Assembly: GCA_024613925.1 (NCBI GenBank)
Contig: GCA_024613925.1_4713.1
Length of the DNA stretch: 64,000 nt
Reading direction: 5' to 3' (one strand)
From: a phage
Shown here: in pieces, positions 35,467-45,100 of the stretch
Numbering within the stretch: the first letter of the stretch is position 1
Layout: each line of letters starts with the position of its first letter
Program-made: the position numbers and the translations under genes
The notes under the pieces: generated by a model
Database searches by the model: none
What the model was told of the DNA's origin: nothing
Seen by the model: the letters and a program-made list of their open reading frames with translations, nothing else

Positions 35467-36597
35467 TTATTTAGCGTCGTTAAAGTAAATATCAACAGCT
35501 CGTTCCGTTGCGTAGAGGAGACCAAGATTCACAGTCCCAACCACTTCCGGTGAACCGATGATACGGTTAGCGATACTGGTGCCACTGAAGATAGCATCAA
35601 GGGTGTGCCCGTCTTCGGTTTTGTTCACACCATGACCCACGGAAGAGACAACGGATTTCGCTTGTGCTGCGAAGGTACCTTTATCACCCATCCCCGCACC
35701 AAGGTCGTAACGCATGAAAATACGGATAGCGATCTGGTTCTCGCCTAACGGATTGCCGTCTATTCTCACGTTACTATTGTTGATACGCCCTGTTGCTGCC
35801 TCGTTGAGTTTCAGTTCCTTAACGCGTTTAGCTCGCGCTTTATCCGCTTCACCGACGAGCGCCGCCATGGTTTCACTCATATCCTCAATCTGAGCACGGT
35901 ACAGTACATCGATCTGTACAACTTCACCATGAACGTCAGCACGTGGGTTATACTGACTCATACGACGTAATGCTTCAACGGCTTCCTGACTCTCATCACT
36001 CAGATCGGTTGCAATCGGTTCTTCCAGTGTTGCAAGAATCGTTCGTGGTTCAACGTGATCACCGATTTTCACAAGACCACGAATATTGAGATGGGCGTCA
36101 ACGATGAGCGTACGGCTCTTAATCGATGGTGTTACGAGACGATCGGCAAGATTGTCGAAGATATACGAACTGTCCTCGTGCGTCTCTGGAATATCCAGAA
36201 TACCGACAAGAGACAGCACACCTGCGCGCCAAACAACCTGGCCTGGGTTCCACCAATCGCGTTTGAAATAAAGACGATGGAAAACCACCACATCCTGATC
36301 CTTAACGCGATCCCCGACTTTATAATCGGTAATGAGATCGTGAGGATAATACTTACCTGGCCCTTTCCCGATTATCGTACCGAGCTGGAAAACCTCTTCC
36401 CCTAACTCTGGATCGTCGTATTGTATCGTAAGCGCAGTTTTGGTGACCTTCTTAACAACACCATCGCCTTGGGCGGCGGCCGCGAAGAGTTTACCAACAC
36501 GATGCGCGATAACAGTCTCACCGCCGGTGCGCCACGGTTGTACATCGTAACCCTCAGCGGCAATCATGCGGTTGTGCTGTATACCTATAAATACCAA
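35467..36597 (-). CDS. RNA polymerase beta-like subunit, downstream exon (catalytic double-psi barrel region); true exon probably begins near 36545
   Basis: GMGDKGTFAAQAKSVVSSV (beta GDKxxxRHGNKG region) and DGHTLDAIFSGTSIANRIIG (beta [21 protein letters not shown]-like); N-terminal TGGETVIAHRVGK...GDGVVKKV resembles beta [14 protein letters not shown]...GGVVQYV; no RBS before the apparent TTG/ATG start. Confidence 0.6.
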   Translation of the reverse strand: MVFIGIQHNRMIAAEGYDVQPWRTGGETVIAHRVGKLFAAAAQGDGVVKKVTKTALTIQYDDPELGEEVFQLGTIIGKGPGKYYPHDLITDYKVGDRVKDQDVVVFHRLYFKRDWWNPGQVVWRAGVLSLVGILDIPETHEDSSYIFDNLADRLVTPSIKSRTLIVDAHLNIRGLVKIGDHVEPRTILATLEEPIATDLSDESQEAVEALRRMSQYNPRADVHGEVVQIDVLYRAQIEDMSETMAALVGEADKARAKRVKELKLNEAATGRINNSNVRIDGNPLGENQIAIRIFMRYDLGAGMGDKGTFAAQAKSVVSSVGHGVNKTEDGHTLDAIFSGTSIANRIIGSPEVVGTVNLGLLYATERAVDIYFNDAK

Positions 36598-37090
36598 TCT
36601 CTTGGGCGAATTTAGTTCTTATTCAACATAATCGTACTATTACCAGAATAAGACTGAGATTAGATTGTTCAGATAAGGTCGTTAATCTTATCCCGGAGGC
36701 GACGATAGGCACATCACCTCCCGCTTGCGCTCTCACGCAAGAGCAGACTATATCACATCTCGTTTCAAACGGTGCTTCTTCAGCACCTCAACGAGAGTTC
36801 ACTTCTTCCCAGCGCATCCAGCGCCATTCTCTTATCCAAGGAGAATGCCTCACTCGAGGGGTACAGGGGGATGAATCCCTTAGTCGTTGAACCTTTACCT
36901 TAGAACGCTTCACAGCGATCCTTAGGTACTTGGCTGCGGATTGTCCTTAAGCTATTATCTGTTTTTATAACCATACCGTCTTTCTTTTCAGAATCCGTTT
37001 TGGTCGATAACAGCGATGGATGTCTTCGCAATTCAGTGAATCTCATCTACATGTCGCCACATAGACGGACCCTGCTATTAAAAGCGTTAA
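36545..37090 (-). ncRNA. group I self-splicing intron (no intron ORF); boundaries approximate
   Basis: On minus strand in order: P-like AATTGCGAAG (37024-37033), Q AATCCGCAGCC (36932-36942), R GTTCAACGACTA (36881-36892), S GATATAGTCTG (36744-36754); flanking ORFs together give a contiguous RNAP beta sequence. Confidence 0.6.
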
Positions 37091-40000
37091 TCATCTCTAT
37101 CAGCAGCAGGTACTGCAAGCGCCGACGTACTCATTATTGACGAGCTACCATCCGTTTTCTCGTCGTAAGGTTTCGTTTCACCGTATACAGACACAATGTT
37201 TGCGTTAGGTGCGAGGTAAGCAGAAATACCTACGTCCCCACTATCCTTCGTACCTTCGGATACAACACCAATGTCCGACTTGTCGTATTCACGATCGCGT
37301 GCGCGTCGAAGCGATGTCTTTGAACGACCCCCGATACCGGTCATCGTCGCTTCTTCACCCTGCTTGATATCCAGCATCGGGTTGGTTTCATCGATTACGA
37401 TGGAAGCGCTGTCGTCGAGAATCTGGTTCCAGACGCTTACCGGACTGATTGAGATTTTCTGGCGGTTTCCTTGACTGCTGTTCTCATTCTGACGAATAGC
37501 GCCAACCAGATCCTTATACACCAACTCAGCGAACTTATCGTACGTTTTAAAACGTTGGTAGTTCACATCGTTCGTGTTAGGTGCCCAATCATCCAGAAGC
37601 AGTTCGACGGCACGCAGTAACAACATGGCGAAATCGGTAGGTTCTCCCATGTTCTGCAGCAACGTACGGCTTACCGGATCAACGAAAAGACGCTCCATGA
37701 GTTCAAGTTCGCGTAAATGGCGAACCTTAAGTCCAGCCCCATCGACAACGTTAAAATAGATATCTCGATTGTCAAAAGCGCCGCGAGCGTAACCAATGTA
37801 GTTACGGTATTCGTTAAACCCACCCAGCAACAACGTCGTCATGCGATCGTCTTTACTGAAGATCAGACTTTCGTCGTCAAAGCTCACCGCGAATTCATCG
37901 GGTGCTAACCCCATACGAGAGCCGCGAGGTACCGTACGATAGTTCGCTTTAAGATGTTCTAATAACGGGGTAAGCCCACCCAGATAACTTAGAACAACAC
38001 CGACCGGAATACGTACACCCATGAATTCAAGATCGGCGGCTTCGATCGGCATCTTAGCCGCATTGATACCGAAGAAATCAGGGAACGTCCCTACAGGTGT
38101 TGGTGTTTGTCCTGACTGACAGATATAGAGCTGATTGCGTTTATCGATTGCTAAGAATTCACCCAGCGTGTTACGCGCAAACGTCAGGAGTCCTTCGGCT
38201 AACTGTTCGTTGAACCGATCTTCCCCAATGAACTCCGGCAATGTCTTTGTATCGAGACGTATATCCCAATCAGCAAATTGGATTTGGGTATAGTTGCGTG
38301 CAAGCACAGCGAAGTAATACGGAACTTTGACAGCTGGATCAAAGACGTTACCACGTTTCAACGTGGTTAAGGGTGAGGACTTATCGTAATACATCGCCGT
38401 AAGTTGACGTGTTAGCCAACGACCCGCATTATTAACGACACGCTCTGAACGTTTAACAAACACCTTACCGTAGGCGGTACTCAACGCAACTTCAGATGAC
38501 GATACCTTTCTAATAGGTTTATCAACACGTTGTTTACGCATCCGGTATTTGATGCCGTTAACGACATAAATGCCGTCCTTACGAACCTTCGGCAACATCA
38601 CCGGGAACGTGGTCGGGACACCGCCTACAGGAGCCAGTTTAATCGTGATGACTTGATAATCCCCCATCACGTCAACAACATCTTCAACTTTATATCCCGT
38701 GACAGGGTAACCTGCCTGCTGTACCGCAACGACGGCAGCTGCGATGTCCTTTTGCATTACGTGTTCAACGTAATGTTTATCCCACACCGCAAGCGTCGAT
38801 TTACACAGGCTCTTATCGACGATAACATCCGCTTCCGGCATAACCTTTGCAGGCGCTAATTTTGCGGCTTTTGGTTTAACTTCAACATACTCAGCAAGTG
38901 TTAATCCAGAACCGTCGGGTGCTTCGATTTCATGGATGGCGTCAGCATTACGCATCGCTGCTTTATATTGGACACCGCTTAACTGACCCGCATCCGCCAG
39001 ATCGCTCGCGCGTACCAACACCGCATCCGATAACGACTGAATATATTCGCCATGCGTTTTCGGTAACGTTGCCGCGTCAAAGACATCAACCTTTTCTTCT
39101 TCGGTATCGTCGGTAACGACTTCGAAGAGATCGTCGGTAATGTCCTGATCTTCATCGGGCTGGAAATCTGGTTGTACTTCTACCCCGGGTACTTCACGGA
39201 CATCTTCGAACGAGCGTTCTACAATGGCGTTCCACGCATCGGCATCATCGTCTTCATCCGACCCACCGACCAACTCCGCTTCTAACTCGTCGGGATCAAG
39301 AACGGTAGCGAGATCCTCACCGTTAGGAAGCACGACGTCGCGATCATCATACTCCGCATCCGGGCTGTCCGCAAGAATATCTCGCTCTTGACGAAGAACC
39401 TGTTCCTCTTCTTGTTTCTGTTCTTCTTCATTCGCGCTCTGCGACCACAGACGTGTTACCGCCATCATCCAACGACGTTGGAAGGTTTCAAGTGTCGTTT
39501 TATCGAGTTCTTCCCCTTCCTTCACAAGTCCGGTACGCCATTCTTCCAGCAGGCCGAGATTCAGCGTAAAGAAGTACACACCGTCTGTAAATACGATGTT
39601 AAGCTTATCCAGCGTGGCTCTGTCTAACGAAGCCATCGTGCTGTTCTCACGATCGGTTCCCAACCAGCGGAAGAAGTCAAAGAACGACAGCTCCTCCGGT
39701 GTGGCGAAATTCATGAGGTTATTACGGGTCGGTGCCTGTTGCGTGGTACGCATCAACGAAATCTTCGGCAATGTTGACGGTATACGGAACAACAAAAAGT
39801 GTTGGCGATCGCTTTGCTGTGCGATTTCGTTGGCTTTCGACCAAATTGTTTTACGTACGTTGAACCATTCATCATACCAACGGGTGAGCGTTGGACGATA
39901 AATGTACATGTGGTTAAGATGCGCGTAGTTAGCAACGATCTGAGCGTTGATGTTTTTCTCCACCGTGCTTAGATCGGTAACCAAACGAAAACGACGATGT

Positions 40001-40296
40001 GATGCACGATAATCCAATTTCGCTCGTGGGAGTTGGAATCGTTGATCACGTCGAGGTGCACCCTGTTTGGTTGCGAGATCATCAGCAAACGAAATCCATA
40101 GTTGAGCACTTTCTTTACTCAGCATGTATTCGTTTTCTGGAGGACCTATCAATGAAGGATCCGTTGCGGTGTAATGATAGACAGCATAACGCGGCAGCTG
40201 CAATAGCTGCACTAAACGTAATCTTGGTGATAGTAACTCTTGGTAGCGTCTGACACCAAACTGTCGGTAGTAATCAAGGTATTTAAGTTTTGCCAT
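37087..40296 (-). CDS. RNA polymerase beta-like subunit, upstream exon (N-terminal and middle regions, with acidic N-terminal extension)
   Basis: KDGIYVVNGIKYR (beta DNGTFIINGTERV-like), CQSGQTPTPVG (CPIETPEG-like), PLLEHLKANY (PFLEHDDANR-like), terminal ALAVPAADRDD (RQAVPTLRAD-like); GGAG RBS; start 3 nt after the beta-prime stop. Confidence 0.6.
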   Translation of the reverse strand: MAKLKYLDYYRQFGVRRYQELLSPRLRLVQLLQLPRYAVYHYTATDPSLIGPPENEYMLSKESAQLWISFADDLATKQGAPRRDQRFQLPRAKLDYRASHRRFRLVTDLSTVEKNINAQIVANYAHLNHMYIYRPTLTRWYDEWFNVRKTIWSKANEIAQQSDRQHFLLFRIPSTLPKISLMRTTQQAPTRNNLMNFATPEELSFFDFFRWLGTDRENSTMASLDRATLDKLNIVFTDGVYFFTLNLGLLEEWRTGLVKEGEELDKTTLETFQRRWMMAVTRLWSQSANEEEQKQEEEQVLRQERDILADSPDAEYDDRDVVLPNGEDLATVLDPDELEAELVGGSDEDDDADAWNAIVERSFEDVREVPGVEVQPDFQPDEDQDITDDLFEVVTDDTEEEKVDVFDAATLPKTHGEYIQSLSDAVLVRASDLADAGQLSGVQYKAAMRNADAIHEIEAPDGSGLTLAEYVEVKPKAAKLAPAKVMPEADVIVDKSLCKSTLAVWDKHYVEHVMQKDIAAAVVAVQQAGYPVTGYKVEDVVDVMGDYQVITIKLAPVGGVPTTFPVMLPKVRKDGIYVVNGIKYRMRKQRVDKPIRKVSSSEVALSTAYGKVFVKRSERVVNNAGRWLTRQLTAMYYDKSSPLTTLKRGNVFDPAVKVPYYFAVLARNYTQIQFADWDIRLDTKTLPEFIGEDRFNEQLAEGLLTFARNTLGEFLAIDKRNQLYICQSGQTPTPVGTFPDFFGINAAKMPIEAADLEFMGVRIPVGVVLSYLGGLTPLLEHLKANYRTVPRGSRMGLAPDEFAVSFDDESLIFSKDDRMTTLLLGGFNEYRNYIGYARGAFDNRDIYFNVVDGAGLKVRHLRELELMERLFVDPVSRTLLQNMGEPTDFAMLLLRAVELLLDDWAPNTNDVNYQRFKTYDKFAELVYKDLVGAIRQNENSSQGNRQKISISPVSVWNQILDDSASIVIDETNPMLDIKQGEEATMTGIGGRSKTSLRRARDREYDKSDIGVVSEGTKDSGDVGISAYLAPNANIVSVYGETKPYDEKTDGSSSIMSTSALAVPAADRDD

Positions 40297-40299
40297 GGG

Positions 40300-41946
40300 T
40301 TAGGCTCCACGAGGTCCCGTTAAGTTGCGTAATAGGAACGCAACCGTATCGTAACCAATATCAATGTTGAATTTATTTTTACCACTTACCCAGAAAGCTC
40401 GCTTCTTGTGCGAGTTGGTAATTTCGTCAATAGCTTCCATGGAATAAAGAACGTTAACCGAGACCGTATCACCGTCGAAGTCCGCCCCGAGGCCAGCTAG
40501 AAACACCTGGCCGACTTGGGTCGTTTCTACAAATGACGCTTTCAATGACCAATCTGGGTATTCCCATGCCATATACCGATCGCCTTCTAACGGTTGCCAA
40601 TCGACACCGAGTTCTCTTCTTGGCTTCGTGTTAACTGTCGTCCGCACATAGCAGGTTAACGGTATAACTGATTGCATTCCCGATACTGGATAACGTGTCA
40701 CCATCGCACCGAGTTTATTCCAAAGATGATAACCGCTCAGATAAACCAATTCGCAGTATGTAACCGGATGAACATTAGCGCCAGGTTTGTTCAGCATCTC
40801 TGGGGGTATTTCACTCATGCCACGGAATAACCGAAACGAATCGTTGTTCACATAGACGAGGCAAAGATAACGCCCATTAACCATGATAGGTTCGTTACGC
40901 ACACCAGGATCGCTTAGCGTGTTCAGTAAACGTTCGATACCGTCCCACGTTGTAAAGTCATCGATGGTATCTGGGTCTAACGTGACGCGTTCACGTTCCA
41001 TCGTTTCGGTATCGATAAGCTCAGCTTCAGTAACATCACGAACAAATATTTCCTGCAAAATCCCCGTACGTAATGCGTGCTGTGTGATAGGAAGAGCAGC
41101 CTTGCTCATCTGATATAGACCAAGTTGTACTGATGTACACGAAGTCTGGTTCGGTGAGCCGAGAACCTCTGTAGTTGGGATGACAGCCGAAATAACGTTA
41201 CGGGTTGAGTTCCAAACGCGACGTGAACCGAACTTCCCTTGGAAGATCCCTTTCTTACCTTGGAACATATCCAACAACAAAGCGTAGATATCGTTGAATG
41301 TTCTCTGTAAGCTCCAGCGCTGGCCGTCGTAAACGGGATCGGAATAATCTTTTAATCCATCAGGGACGGTGTTAGAAATTGCAAGGAAACGACGATACAA
41401 CTCCGTGATTTCTTGCTCGCTTTCATACCCGCCTTCTTTTACTTCTATTTCACGTAAGCCTGCAGGTAATACCAGTAAGTGACGGGTCATCGCTTTGAAC
41501 ATGTTCTCTTCGACAACTTTAATTCGTAGCTCTCGTTGAGCTGAACCCGTTGAAACGAACTTGATATCCGCGACGTGTTGTGCAAAGAACCCGTATCCTG
41601 TTTGTCCTGTTAACGCATCAGACGCAACGAAGTCGCGTTGTTCAGGATCCCAACGAGCATACGCCTTTCCCGACATGATATCACCATAGAGGTGTTTTAG
41701 TCGAATGAGGCGGTCGTAAATGACAGGGTGCAGGATTTCAACCTTGCATTCAATCACCGCAAATCGACGGTCTCGATCTTCACTACCTGCACTACCAAAG
41801 ATGGTGTAAGAATAGAAACCATCATCGTGGAAATTACCGGTGCTTGGGTCACGAATGCTCATGCTCGTGATCTTGGGGAGAAAACGTAACTGCTGTTTAT
41901 CGAGGTGTAAAATACTAATGTTAAACGGCTCTCTGACTTTAGCCAT
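40300..41946 (-). CDS. RNA polymerase beta-prime-like subunit, N-terminal catalytic part (548 aa from ATG 41946)
   Basis: GADFDGDTVSVNVLYSMEA matches the universal beta-prime NADFDGDQMAVHVPLTLEA; GKFGSRRVWNSTRNVIS resembles GKRVDYSGRSVIT; AGAGGAG RBS before ATG 41946. Confidence 0.7.
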   Translation of the reverse strand: MAKVREPFNISILHLDKQQLRFLPKITSMSIRDPSTGNFHDDGFYSYTIFGSAGSEDRDRRFAVIECKVEILHPVIYDRLIRLKHLYGDIMSGKAYARWDPEQRDFVASDALTGQTGYGFFAQHVADIKFVSTGSAQRELRIKVVEENMFKAMTRHLLVLPAGLREIEVKEGGYESEQEITELYRRFLAISNTVPDGLKDYSDPVYDGQRWSLQRTFNDIYALLLDMFQGKKGIFQGKFGSRRVWNSTRNVISAVIPTTEVLGSPNQTSCTSVQLGLYQMSKAALPITQHALRTGILQEIFVRDVTEAELIDTETMERERVTLDPDTIDDFTTWDGIERLLNTLSDPGVRNEPIMVNGRYLCLVYVNNDSFRLFRGMSEIPPEMLNKPGANVHPVTYCELVYLSGYHLWNKLGAMVTRYPVSGMQSVIPLTCYVRTTVNTKPRRELGVDWQPLEGDRYMAWEYPDWSLKASFVETTQVGQVFLAGLGADFDGDTVSVNVLYSMEAIDEITNSHKKRAFWVSGKNKFNIDIGYDTVAFLLRNLTGPRGA

Positions 41947-42068
41947 GGAGACACTCCTCTTTACCACCACCGGCTGCGGCGGTATCATCTGAACACACGA
42001 GAGACGTAATGGGTGATGGCGTCACCCATCGCTTCCTTGCCTGATGCCAGGAAGTTATTAGGTTACGT

Positions 42069-42191: not shown

Positions 42192-45100
42192 ATGGTAGAT
42201 AAAACCCGTGTTGAGGGTGATGATAATTGGGATAACTGGGATGATGACTTCTCCCTGGATCTCGATTTTGATGAGCCTAAAGACGATCGTAAGCCAATAA
42301 CACGCTTTGCGGTAGGGGCGGTTAAAGGTGCTGCTGAGGATCTTACTTCCTACGAAAGAATGAAGGAGATCGCCAGAAACGCATTGCCTAAGGGCTACAG
42401 CGACGGTATGGATCTTATTGATTCCGCCGTCGGATCCACGAAGGAACTATACAATGAAGCCGTTCGTGACGTTCTTCCTAAGGTCCAAAGCTCAAAACGG
42501 TTAGCAGCACAACTAACCAAGAAATACCGTGCGAGCATGCCCGATTTCTCGAAGAAAATTCTCGAGCAATGGGAGCGAGAAGCCAAGGAAGAAGACGAAC
42601 GTAAACAGGCTGAAGCAGAACTCAAGCAACGCATGGCGAGCGCGGGAGATAATGAAATCGCCCGTAAGGTTGCCGAAGCGTTAGGCGAATCAGCAAACCA
42701 AAGCGCGGATCAGTTTGCCGAACAGCAAGCAAAAGAAAGTATCCGTGACGATATCGCTGACAAACGGTACGCTGTAACCAACAAACAAATGAGTGCGATG
42801 CAAGAAGGCGTCGCCAAGATGGTTGGTTTCAACAATGAATTCGCTGCGCGCTACATGCGTAAAAGCCTGGAACTGAAATATCGTTCCTTAGCGATTCAAC
42901 GTGCAAGTTTTGATCAGCATAAAAAGTTAGCCGAAGTCTATATCGGTTTATTACAAAACATCCAGAAGAACACGGCTTTACCTGATGCGGCTAAAGCGAA
43001 AATGTCGGAAGAATTCCGTCGTAGTGCATACCAACGTTTCTTTGGTAATACGTTAGATGCGATGAGTTCTTTCGAGAACCGTTTCTTTGCCGATGTTAAG
43101 AAAAACCTATCCAGGAACATCGTCGGAGCTTTATCGGGATTCGCTGAAAGCAGTCGAGACGCACTGTCTGGCCTCGCCGAAGTGAAAGACGGTATGTCCA
43201 TGATGGATGGAATTGGTTCGGAAGGCGATATAAAGGAGATGAAGGGGAGAATGCTGGGCCAGCTTATCGGCACGGCAGTAACCCCATGGCTTGCCGAGAA
43301 AGGATCGACAGCACTACGTGATTTTGCAAAACGCCATCCTAACTCAAAAATCGCATCCGCAATAAAAACCATTGATGCTGGTGGCGATGCGGCCGCATTT
43401 ACCAGTCGTAACATCGGTAAAATTCTTCAAGAGGACATTCGGAAAAACCAGTTTAATCTCAGCGATCCGTGGTATAAACGTTTCTTACGGGATACCGGAA
43501 GCATGATGTTCAACATGGACACCGGACGTAACTTCCGTGTGATGAACGACACCGCTGAAACACTGGCGGAGCAAACGTCTTTCGACGGTTTAACTTACCG
43601 CAGCATCAATGAAGTTATTCCTGGTTTTCTTGCACGCATTCTGAAAAGCAGTGAAGGCATCCGTACGGGAAACAGCGATCCTGACTACGAGGTCTATGAC
43701 AGCATCAGCGGGCAATTCGTGGCTCAGCGCACGCGTGAACAAAGCGTCAATGACACGCTGTTTAACAAACGTACATTTGGTTATTACGCCAGCCGTTTCA
43801 ACGAGGTTATCTCGGTCATCGATCCCGATAAGAAATTATCGGATAACGCAAGAAAAGGATTAGCAAAACAGCTAGCTCGTGACAGCGACGCAAACATTGC
43901 ATTCGACCCGGCTCGTTTTACGGATGAAAGCAACTTCGATCGTAGTATCGACCGTGACGCTATTAAGGAACTTTCTAATTACTTCCGTAACCGTTACGGT
44001 ATCGACTACGTACCCGATGAAAAAGGACAACGCCATCAGGTCATTGGAAACCGCGGGCAATATTACACGGAACGTAACCGAGCTGACCTTCGCTACGGTA
44101 ATTTGAAATCGTTACAACCGGATATCCAGCGTAACCTTAACCTACTGAAACGTACTGGTGACGTCCAATATCTGGAACGGATTGGGATTGTAACGAGAAA
44201 TAGCGACGGAAGCTACTCGGTTAATCACGATCGGTATTTCTCTGAAATCGATCGATACATCGACCGACCGGAGTACGCTGAACGCAGTGATGTTAATACG
44301 CGATTAACCGCTCAGGAAACAAGAGCGCTGGCGCTGGGTTATCGTGACGCAAAACCATCAGTTGATGACGTGCAAAATGCGGGTCGGCCACACATCGATC
44401 GTAAGGCTGTTGGAACAGTAACCGTTGATGAAAACATCGGTTACGATAAATGGTGGAACGACACAGGTGTTATCACCACATCGCTTGAAGAACAGAATCG
44501 AGCGTGGCAAGAGCTTTATCTCGAAGCGTTATCTGAAGCATCCGAACAACGTACTGAAATGCTTGCGTTGCTGAAAGCCATTTCTGAGAAAGACTGGTCT
44601 AATAACGTTTCGTTGGATGGCGAAGATGTACCTGAAGGTGCGGCACCCATTTCATTTATCGATCGCGCCAAACAAAAACTCGGTGCACGCAACCTCTTTA
44701 AAGGCGGTCGTAATCTCCTCTGGAAAGGAATTAAAAATACCGCACGTCTGGGTGTTAAAGGCGCACGCTGGGGTGCAGAACGCACGTTGGGCAGTTTGGT
44801 AAATTCTGGCCGACGCATTATCAATTTCAACCGTTTTGTGTTCGGTGCATTATCCAAGGTTGATCAGGTTCCGTTTGACATTTACGTTAAAGGGGAATCC
44901 CAGCCACGCATATTGGCTGCCAAACTTCGTCAGGGGTTATACTTCGACGAAGCGACAGGAAAAGCTGTAAAACGGATGAAGGATATCAAAGGTCCACTCG
45001 TTGATGCGGATGGAAATATCGTAATCAGTAACGAGGATATCGAGAAAGGGTTGGTCACTCGCGCTGGTCGTGCCTTTGAGAATTCAGGACTTAAGGCGTG

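Follow-up and report, generated by a model that had tools for sequence, protein, structure and literature searches.

Evidence for a group I intron without endonuclease gene in the gene for the virion RNA polymerase beta subunit of a Goslar-like phage

The DNA analysed here is a phage stretch of 64,000 nucleotides (nt) from contig GCA_024613925.1_4713.1 (GenBank assembly GCA_024613925.1), named the window in this text. It is ~95% identical at the DNA level to Escherichia phage vB_EcoM_Goslar, a nucleus-forming jumbo phage of E. coli. Positions 37089 to 36607 of the minus strand are very probably a group I intron of the T4 td-like IA type that has no endonuclease gene and interrupts the beta gene of the multisubunit RNA polymerase (RNAP) packaged in the virions of this Goslar-like phage. 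The covariance-model match, the covarying helices, the colinearity with intron-less alleles and the allele series in related genomes are all observed directly. Catalysis, in the form of guanosine-dependent self-splicing, is what we infer from the sequence. A first inspection of the letters of the window (the sequence-only reading) had already proposed a group I intron splitting an RNAP beta-like gene. The proposal is borne out by the full-length match to the Rfam model RF00028, by compensatory base changes, by the restored reading frame and by introns at the same site in phages PhiPA3 and 201phi2-1.

The interrupted beta gene and its splice sites

Two minus-strand open reading frames (ORFs), 40296..37087 (1069 amino acids (aa)) and 36597..35467 (376 aa), are separated by 489 nt, in agreement with the gap given by the sequence-only reading. 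The upstream ORF matches positions 2-1050 of PHROG 3148 (RNAP beta subunit, 1424 positions; E 1e-290) and the downstream ORF positions 1055-1420. It was PHROGs that gave the assignment; no match was found in Pfam for the two beta ORFs or for neighbouring ORFs. The jumbo-phage homologues of the protein carry the annotation of virion-associated RNAP beta. The Goslar orthologue, gp207, is one unbroken coding sequence (CDS) of 4347 nt (1448 aa), to which the translated exon 1 is 98.6% identical (residues 1-1069) and exon 2 99.2%. The gene spans 4830 nt in the window, a difference of exactly 483 nt that equals the intron length. Splicing in silico yields a product of 1448 aa without internal stop codon and colinear with gp207 (...AVPAADRDD-PKRLVFIGIQHNRM...). 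The predicted junction of the spliced RNA is ...GAUGAU/CCCAAGAGA (here and below a slash marks a boundary) and the predicted peptide spanning it includes AADRDDPKRLVF or AVPAADRDDPKRLVF. The corrected gene model is one 1448-aa virion RNAP beta subunit, not two ORFs.

A search of the PDB with the single beta sequence matched nothing. When five spliced homologues were combined into a profile, bacterial RNAP beta was matched in the PDB, with E 3.9e-9 for Thermus and E 1.1e-3 for E. coli. The alignment of this profile to the E. coli protein sets ...aaEHDD/PKR... opposite ...LEHDD/ANRALMGSNMQTQAVP... and the window sequence ...AADRDD/PKRLVFIGIQ opposite ...LEHDD/ANRALMGSNMQ. The motif split by the intron is EHDD/ANR and the window residues 1068-1069 (DD) correspond to the conserved Asp pair ending at E. 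coli RpoB D675 (PMC11620839). The sequence-only reading was correct in joining the ORFs to a contiguous RNAP beta, which has the length of gp207, and two equivalences that it drew downstream hold (RTGGE with GTGME, GDGVVKKV with GGVVQYV). Its alignment to E. coli was shifted by ~18 residues at the break, and RQAVP...ADKP, which it took for the split motif, has to be replaced by EHDD/ANR. Phage PA7, whose phiKZ-type gene is uninterrupted, has EHDDPKR here, so that the Pro made by the window junction is the consensus of the wider family.

A scan with Rfam 15 identified RF00028 (Intron_gpI) at 37091..36724 (-), over the complete model (1-253 of 253) and with 56.2 bits relative to a gathering score of 50 (E 1.4e-11). 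This search, which the sequence-only reading had named as a check, gave no other gathering-level Rfam match in the 64-kb window. The fold of the intron RNA has a minimum free energy (MFE) of -158 kcal/mol (z = -5.07 versus shuffled controls). As the sequence-only reading had noted, no homing endonuclease ORF is present: the longest ORF inside the intron has 48 aa and none is of endonuclease size, so that the own endonuclease of a mobile intron is missing.

Splice sites were defined by enumeration of all frame-keeping pairs of a 5′ exon terminated by U and an intron terminated by G. The pair U37090/U37089 and G36607/C36606 is the only one that keeps the length of the protein and has a U at position -1, a G at the intron end and an intact frame. 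The window sequence around the ends is ...GAT GAT (UAACGC...AAAUUCG) CCC AAG AGA UUG, with the intron in brackets, versus ...GAC GAT/GGA AAA CGT CTG in Goslar. The U at -1, the terminal G (...UYCG/CC) and the internal guide GGGUC are unchanged in the four copies found at this site, namely those of the window and of three related genomes (L006, L007 and L017; see the section on alleles). The codons that open exon 2 vary only synonymously among copies (Pro CCC, CCA or CCG; Arg AGA or CGT; Leu TTG or CTC) and the Lys codon likewise has no non-synonymous change. Because the variation upstream of the TTG is synonymous only, the Pro-Lys-Arg codons must be translated within one protein, which is possible only after splicing due to the in-frame stops located just upstream. 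The 5′ site is where the sequence-only reading had placed it (near 37090), while its 3′ site near 36545 was ~62 nt away from the 36607/36606 boundary. Hand enumeration also covered other 5′ sites, namely those after GAUGAUU, after GAUGAUUA and at one or two GAU codons further upstream, as well as GUCUAU or UUAAU in the role of the guide. None was retained, on the grounds of a frame break, an intron end other than G, loss of the synonymously conserved codons or a lost U.G wobble.

Structure of the intron RNA

The helices (Table 1) were drawn by hand and then tested on the alignment of the four same-site copies. Standard pairs account for 96.6% of the pair cells, compared to 34-44% after a shift of the 3′ partners by 1-3 columns. 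Changes on both sides are found in 11 pairs (0-2 in the shifted controls) and the covariation score was reached by none of 500 shuffles. The compensatory changes are located in P2, P4, P5, P5a/b, P6a, P6b and P9.1; P3, P7, P7.1, P7.2, P8 and P9.2 are paired without variation across copies. The four core elements have the coordinates and the order that the sequence-only reading had assigned to them: P AAUUGCGAAG (intron nt 57-66, 37033..37024), Q AAUCCGCAGCC (nt 148-158, 36942..36932), R GUUCAACGACUA (nt 198-209, 36892..36881) and S GAUAUAGUCUG (nt 336-346, 36754..36744). Their pairing as P4 (P with Q, five of six standard pairs and one A.C) and P7 (R with S, 6/6) also agrees with it. In P7, the pair G205-C344 beside the bulged C204 would be the guanosine-binding pair, by likeness to G264-C311 of Tetrahymena. 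The GUC of the guide forms P1 with the exon-1 GAU (37092..37090), including a U37090.G20 wobble, and its GG forms P10 with the exon-2 CC (36606..36605). The presence of P7.1/P7.2 between P7 and P3′, together with the identity to td (see the last section), supports an IA2-like subgroup of td type, an assignment made by likeness. The unconstrained MFE fold, in which the guide GGGUC pairs with a P3 strand, was rejected for P1 and P3 on comparative grounds.

Table 1. Coordinates of the predicted intron, its structural elements and the flanking exons (nt, position within the intron).
Feature	Position	Strand	Remarks
Group I intron, 483 nt, IA2-like (P7.1/P7.2)	37089..36607	-	endonuclease ORF absent; opens with the in-frame stop UAA (37089..37087), closes with omega-G 36607
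Internal guide sequence GGGUC (nt 18-22)	37068..37072	-	invariant in 4 copies; P1 and P10 pairs 100%
P2 hairpin, 10 bp, GCGA loop (nt 23-46)	37044..37067	-	10/10 pairs in all copies; 5 vary one-sided, 1 two-sided
P4-P5-P5a/b domain (nt 60-155)	36935..37030	-	compensatory: P4 pair 5 A.C, A-U or G-C; P5 U-A to C-G; also P5a/b
P6/P6a/P6b (nt 157-198)	36892..36933	-	compensatory: P6a U-A to C-G, P6b C-G to U-A
P7 5′ strand (nt 203-209)	36881..36887	-	pairs with nt 340-345 (36750..36745), 6/6, invariant
P7.1 (nt 211-222) and branched P7.2 (nt 223-282), between P7 and P3′	36808..36879	-	fully paired, invariant
P8/P8a (nt 294-332)	36758..36796	-	helices 19-20 of the four-copy test
P9 (nt 349-366, GAGA loop), P9.1 (nt 369-395), P9.2 (nt 398-418)	36672..36741	-	P9.1 compensatory A-U to U-A
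Intron 3′ tail (nt 419-483)	36607..36671	-	window-specific 8-bp hairpin (36653..36617); AAUCUC (36661..36656)
Exon 1, virion RNAP beta gene	37090..40296	-	1069 codons, end ...AVPAADRDD; U37090 is the last base and the 5′ splice-site U
Exon 2, RNAP beta gene	35467..36606	-	start CCC AAG AGA UUG (PKRL); 379 codons and stop

The Goslar-like introns run on for 40-65 nt past P9.2 before the 3′ splice site is reached. The tail of the window intron is unlike those of L006, L007 and L017, and positions +6 to +12 of exon 2 differ as well, synonymously. The AAUCUC of this tail is complementary to GAGAUU at exon-2 positions +6..+11 (36601..36596), and the same columns read AGACGC and GCGUCU in L006, L007 and L017. 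Three of the six pairs are changed on both sides and every cell is paired, in a comparison that comprises two independent haplotypes only. This helix, possibly a new detail, is a lead: with P10 as weak as it is, it may serve to hold the 3′ exon. It is absent from the intron of phage Haymo, also examined for it, and is therefore not a general feature of introns inserted after the two Asp (the DD site). An IMG/VR search with the window-specific intron tail did not find it.

A splicing pathway can be proposed from these elements. The pre-mRNA would fold into the P3-P9 core and the guide GGGUC would pair with the last three bases of exon 1 (GAU, with the U.G wobble) to form P1. Free guanosine bound at G205-C344 of P7 would attack after U37090. 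The terminal G36607 would then take the guanosine site while exon 2 is held by the 2-bp P10 (CC with GG), and probably also by the 6-bp helix with the intron tail, and the exons would be ligated. The 1448-aa protein made from this RNA would have the invariant RNAP beta motif of EHDD-ANR type restored. Translation of unspliced RNA would stop at the UAA formed by the first three bases of the intron.

A sensitive Rfam scan of the whole window also found a sub-threshold match to the ribosomal S15 leader RF00114 at 42923..43028 (+) with 25.8 bits (threshold 39.5; E 0.075), which is most likely due to chance.

Alleles at the insertion site and alternative explanations

Scanning of IMG/VR and metagenome contigs with intron and exon patterns identified seven further Goslar-like genomes, eight including the window; the genomes compared are 87-97% identical to it. 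The site is empty in four (Goslar, L011, L014 and L015), all of which read VDRDD/GKRLVFVG. It is occupied in the other four, at the same codon boundary and always as ADRDD/intron/PKRLVFIG, by introns of 483 nt (window), 461 nt (L006), 503 nt (L017) and 1583 nt (L007). The copies of the window, L006 and L017 carry no ORF and differ in their peripheral insertions; an endonuclease ORF is found only in L007. Exon identity between intron-plus and intron-minus alleles is 65% within 30 nt on each side of the junction and 68-84% out to ~-120 nt. Between alleles of the same class the value remains 87-98%, and past ~150 nt all comparisons approach one another. The empty site of Goslar reads GACCGTGACGAT/GGAAAACGTCTG versus GATAGAGATGAT/CCCAAGAGATTG in the ligated exons of the window. 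Such a divergence of the flanks is the pattern expected if they travel with the intron, or if the occupied allele diverged from the endonuclease target. A presence/absence polymorphism linked to a flanking-exon haplotype, as is characteristic of mobile introns, is thus found at this site.

Insertions in P8 and P9.2 bring the copy of L017 (11784..12286, -) below the Rfam gathering score. As the insert of Vibrio phage BONAISHI (see the last section) likewise has no Rfam match, annotation based on thresholds misses some such introns.

The ORF of the L007 intron begins in the P1 loop, reads through P2-P6 and codes for 403 aa. Its product has a NUMOD1 match over the Pfam cut-off and weaker I-TevI DNA-binding, I-HmuI-like and HNH_3 matches. 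Of the proteins of deposited phages, PhiPA3 gp210 resembles it most closely (36% identity, E 5e-46); endonucleases of Haymo and of Haymo relatives come next. The window intron is best read as occupying the homing site of a nicking HNH endonuclease of the PhiPA3 gp210 type, and as descended from, or related to, the ORF-carrying intron of L007, without its endonuclease. On this reading the occupied site would be immune to the endonuclease, and the ORF may have been lost or gained. Two reasons would account for the persistence of the intron: introns are rarely lost precisely, and the enzyme should no longer target a site that is occupied and has diverged in sequence.

A second intron is found in the RNAP beta′ gene of some of these genomes (see the last section). 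The window has the beta intron and not that of beta′ while Goslar shows the reverse; L006 has both, L011 neither, and L014 an ORF-less beta′ intron (61.9 bits). In view of this reciprocal pattern, which involves two RNAP introns in 95%-identical phages, a speculative and rather doubtful extension can be formulated. The helix between tail and exon 2 might be a selected element that constrains synonymous codons, either as a tether of the 3′ exon or a definition of the 3′ site that offsets the 2-bp P10, or as a gate of the second step. The ORF-less intron with its diverged flanks might then serve as a resistance allele where co-infecting Goslar-like phages compete by means of intron endonucleases.

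Several features of the element itself weigh against a functional intron with the boundaries given here. The RF00028 score is only 6 bits over the threshold and the L017 copy is below it. The covariation test comprises four related sequences and a structure taken from one of them, in which an A.C mismatch is found in P4 and a U.U in P6b. P1 has three exon pairs and P10 two, both invariant and hence beyond the reach of covariation. Such short pairings are not unprecedented, as P1 of the Azoarcus intron has 3 bp and P10 of td 2 bp. Splicing in the window phage is predicted from its DNA, and endonuclease immunity and the loss or gain of the ORF are putative. It could be argued that the beta gene is truly split into two polypeptides and that the 489-nt spacer is what remains of a dead intron, retained in every transcript: exon 1 closes at an in-frame UAA, a TTG-start ORF can be drawn from 36597, and the RNAP beta and beta′ genes of jumbo phages are often naturally split (PMC7598289). 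A dead relic is, however, difficult to reconcile with an intact ribozyme core that scores over the Rfam threshold and with compensatory substitutions among copies that imply selection on the RNA fold. Two polypeptides would also not account for the conserved Pro-Lys-Arg codons upstream of the TTG, translatable only after splicing, or for a break that lies inside the invariant EHDD-ANR motif and not at a domain boundary. Close relatives have a single unbroken gene and the same-site intron of 201phi2-1 gives a joined product. We regard a gene split into two polypeptides as extremely improbable.

The boundaries of a functional intron are constrained by several observations. Only GAU/...UCG/CCC matches the length of the four intron-less alleles and the phiKZ-type EHDDPKR; the RDD and PKR codons vary synonymously, as translated sequence does; the CC at exon-2 +1/+2 pairs with the invariant guide GG in all copies; and Haymo has the same ...UUUCG/CCAAAACG junction. 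These observations speak against a functional group I intron with other boundaries, for example a 3′ site after AAG (36598/36597), which would give ...DRDD-RLVF..., or a 5′ site one GAU upstream. We consider such boundaries very unlikely, even though a P1 of 3 bp and a P10 of 2 bp leave the sites unfixed by pairing alone and further G residues precede in-frame codons (AAG/AGA). PhiPA3 and 201phi2-1 may in addition ligate to ...DD-(M)KR and BONAISHI apparently one codon downstream. A different question is whether the intron, instead of being a stranded remnant, is still mobile by means of an endonuclease supplied in trans from a co-infecting relative or from elsewhere in the genome. At the same site the close relative L007 has the gene of a gp210-like HNH enzyme, the flanking-exon haplotype moves with the intron, and three ORF-less copies with unlike peripheral insertions share the site. 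No endonuclease ORF is found in or beside the window intron, however, and the gene order is as in Goslar. Mobility in trans, which is possible if somewhat unlikely, would be compatible with an endonuclease-less intron at the homing site of a gp210-type enzyme and does not exclude it.

Comparison with known introns

The vRNAP (virion RNAP) beta gene of the Pseudomonas phage PhiPA3 (gp211/209) is interrupted by an intron encoding the HNH nickase gp210 (Birkholz et al., Science 2024, PMC11620839). It is inserted directly after two conserved Asp, the second of which is E. coli RpoB D675 and phiKZ gp178 D1072 (PMC11620839). The gene (a homologue of phiKZ gp178) and the insertion point after DD are those of the window intron. 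The PhiPA3 group I core scores 67.8 bits with Rfam, its ORF lies upstream of the core, as in L007, and identity to the window intron is 73% over P4′-P6-P7. The window intron differs by the lack of an ORF, by its E. coli phage context and by its periphery (a large P5 extension, P9.1-P9.2 and an extra tail). Its exon 2 opens with Pro whereas PhiPA3 apparently ligates to (M)KR. The intron of phage 201phi2-1 (gp273/274) shares the gene, the DD site and the absence of an ORF (~336 nt, Rfam 87.4 bits). Splicing in 201phi2-1 is supported by proteomics and by two spliced Oxford Nanopore (ONT) reads (PMC11512511), and its record annotates a joined CDS; this is the only direct splicing evidence that we found for the DD site. 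The 201phi2-1 intron is much shorter than that of the window and has neither its P5 extension nor its long 3′ tail; DNA similarity between the two is undetectable outside the core. In Haymo the DD site is occupied by an endonuclease ORF and a group I core of 82.6 bits, and tblastn identified several further phages with an occupied site. The insert of BONAISHI (~515 nt) is apparently located one codon downstream (DDG/KR).

The td intron of T-even phages (IA2) also has an in-frame UAA straight after the splice-site U and P7.1/P7.2 between P7 and P3′. Two segments are identical in DNA sequence between td and the window intron: 32 of 32 nt at intron nt 393-424 (36697..36666, -), comprising the 3′ end of P9.1, P9.2 and CUGAACA, and 15 nt of the P7′ strand (36754..36740, -). 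The remainder is not alignable as DNA. The 32-nt stretch is present in many T-even phages, whose hosts are E. coli, Shigella, Salmonella and Klebsiella. This suggests that the introns of T-even and Goslar-like coliphages have a common ancestry or have exchanged modules. The td intron differs in its host gene (thymidylate synthase) and in carrying I-TevI (GIY-YIG) in P6, whereas the relatives of the window intron have HNH enzymes in the P1 loop and the window intron has no ORF. It ends 8 nt past CUGAACA while the window intron goes on for ~60 nt, and its P1 has 6 bp versus 3 bp in the window.

The beta′ intron of Goslar (gp205/gp206, annotated as non-coding RNA (ncRNA) Intron_gpI) stems from the same phage lineage and is of the same structural type, sharing with the window intron 30 of 33 nt in P7-P7.1 and 42 of 52 nt in P7′-P9. 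It is found in another gene and has an HNH/NUMOD ORF upstream of its core: ~2 kb split the catalytic ADFDGD motif of beta′ in Goslar (L001 1-3000), with the 490-aa HNH/NUMOD protein gp206 and a group I core of 67.7 bits. This site is empty in the window, where the beta′-like subunit (562 aa, 40300..41988 (-)) is intact (...GLGADFDGDTVSV...).

Two other findings concern further introns. In the Vibrio jumbo phage vB_pir03 (L003 4806..5185), a group I intron of 54.7 bits lies between two ORFs annotated as RNA polymerase beta prime. It is 79% identical to the window intron over P4′-P6-P7-P7.1 and has a similar P5 extension, so that the two are assigned to one intron lineage, in another gene and another host genus. 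P7-P7.1 is common to the window intron, the Goslar beta′ intron and this Vibrio phage intron. The P7-P7.1 pattern also led to an unrelated 8-kb viral contig (IMGVR_UViG_3300022332_000002, L005 4770..5824 (-)) with three group I introns in ~1 kb, scoring 98, 86 and 76 bits. They cut an apparent terminase large-subunit gene into four exons, with the Walker A motif GGAAGSGKT in the first.

When the intron alone was compared as DNA with deposited phages, core fragments but no full-length copy were identified. By these comparisons, the window element is a further case of a known class at a known homing site, in a version that no deposited phage record carries. Its biology is expected, not surprising. 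Goslar is a laboratory model for nucleus-forming phages and the allele series falls in its group. The empty site, the allele coding for a gp210-like endonuclease, the three variants that lack an ORF and the second intron, in the adjacent beta′ gene, form a natural series for homing, ORF loss and interference competition in E. coli. The intron at the DD site of chimallivirus vRNAP genes, represented by PhiPA3 and 201phi2-1, is hereby extended to the Goslar group of E. coli phages.

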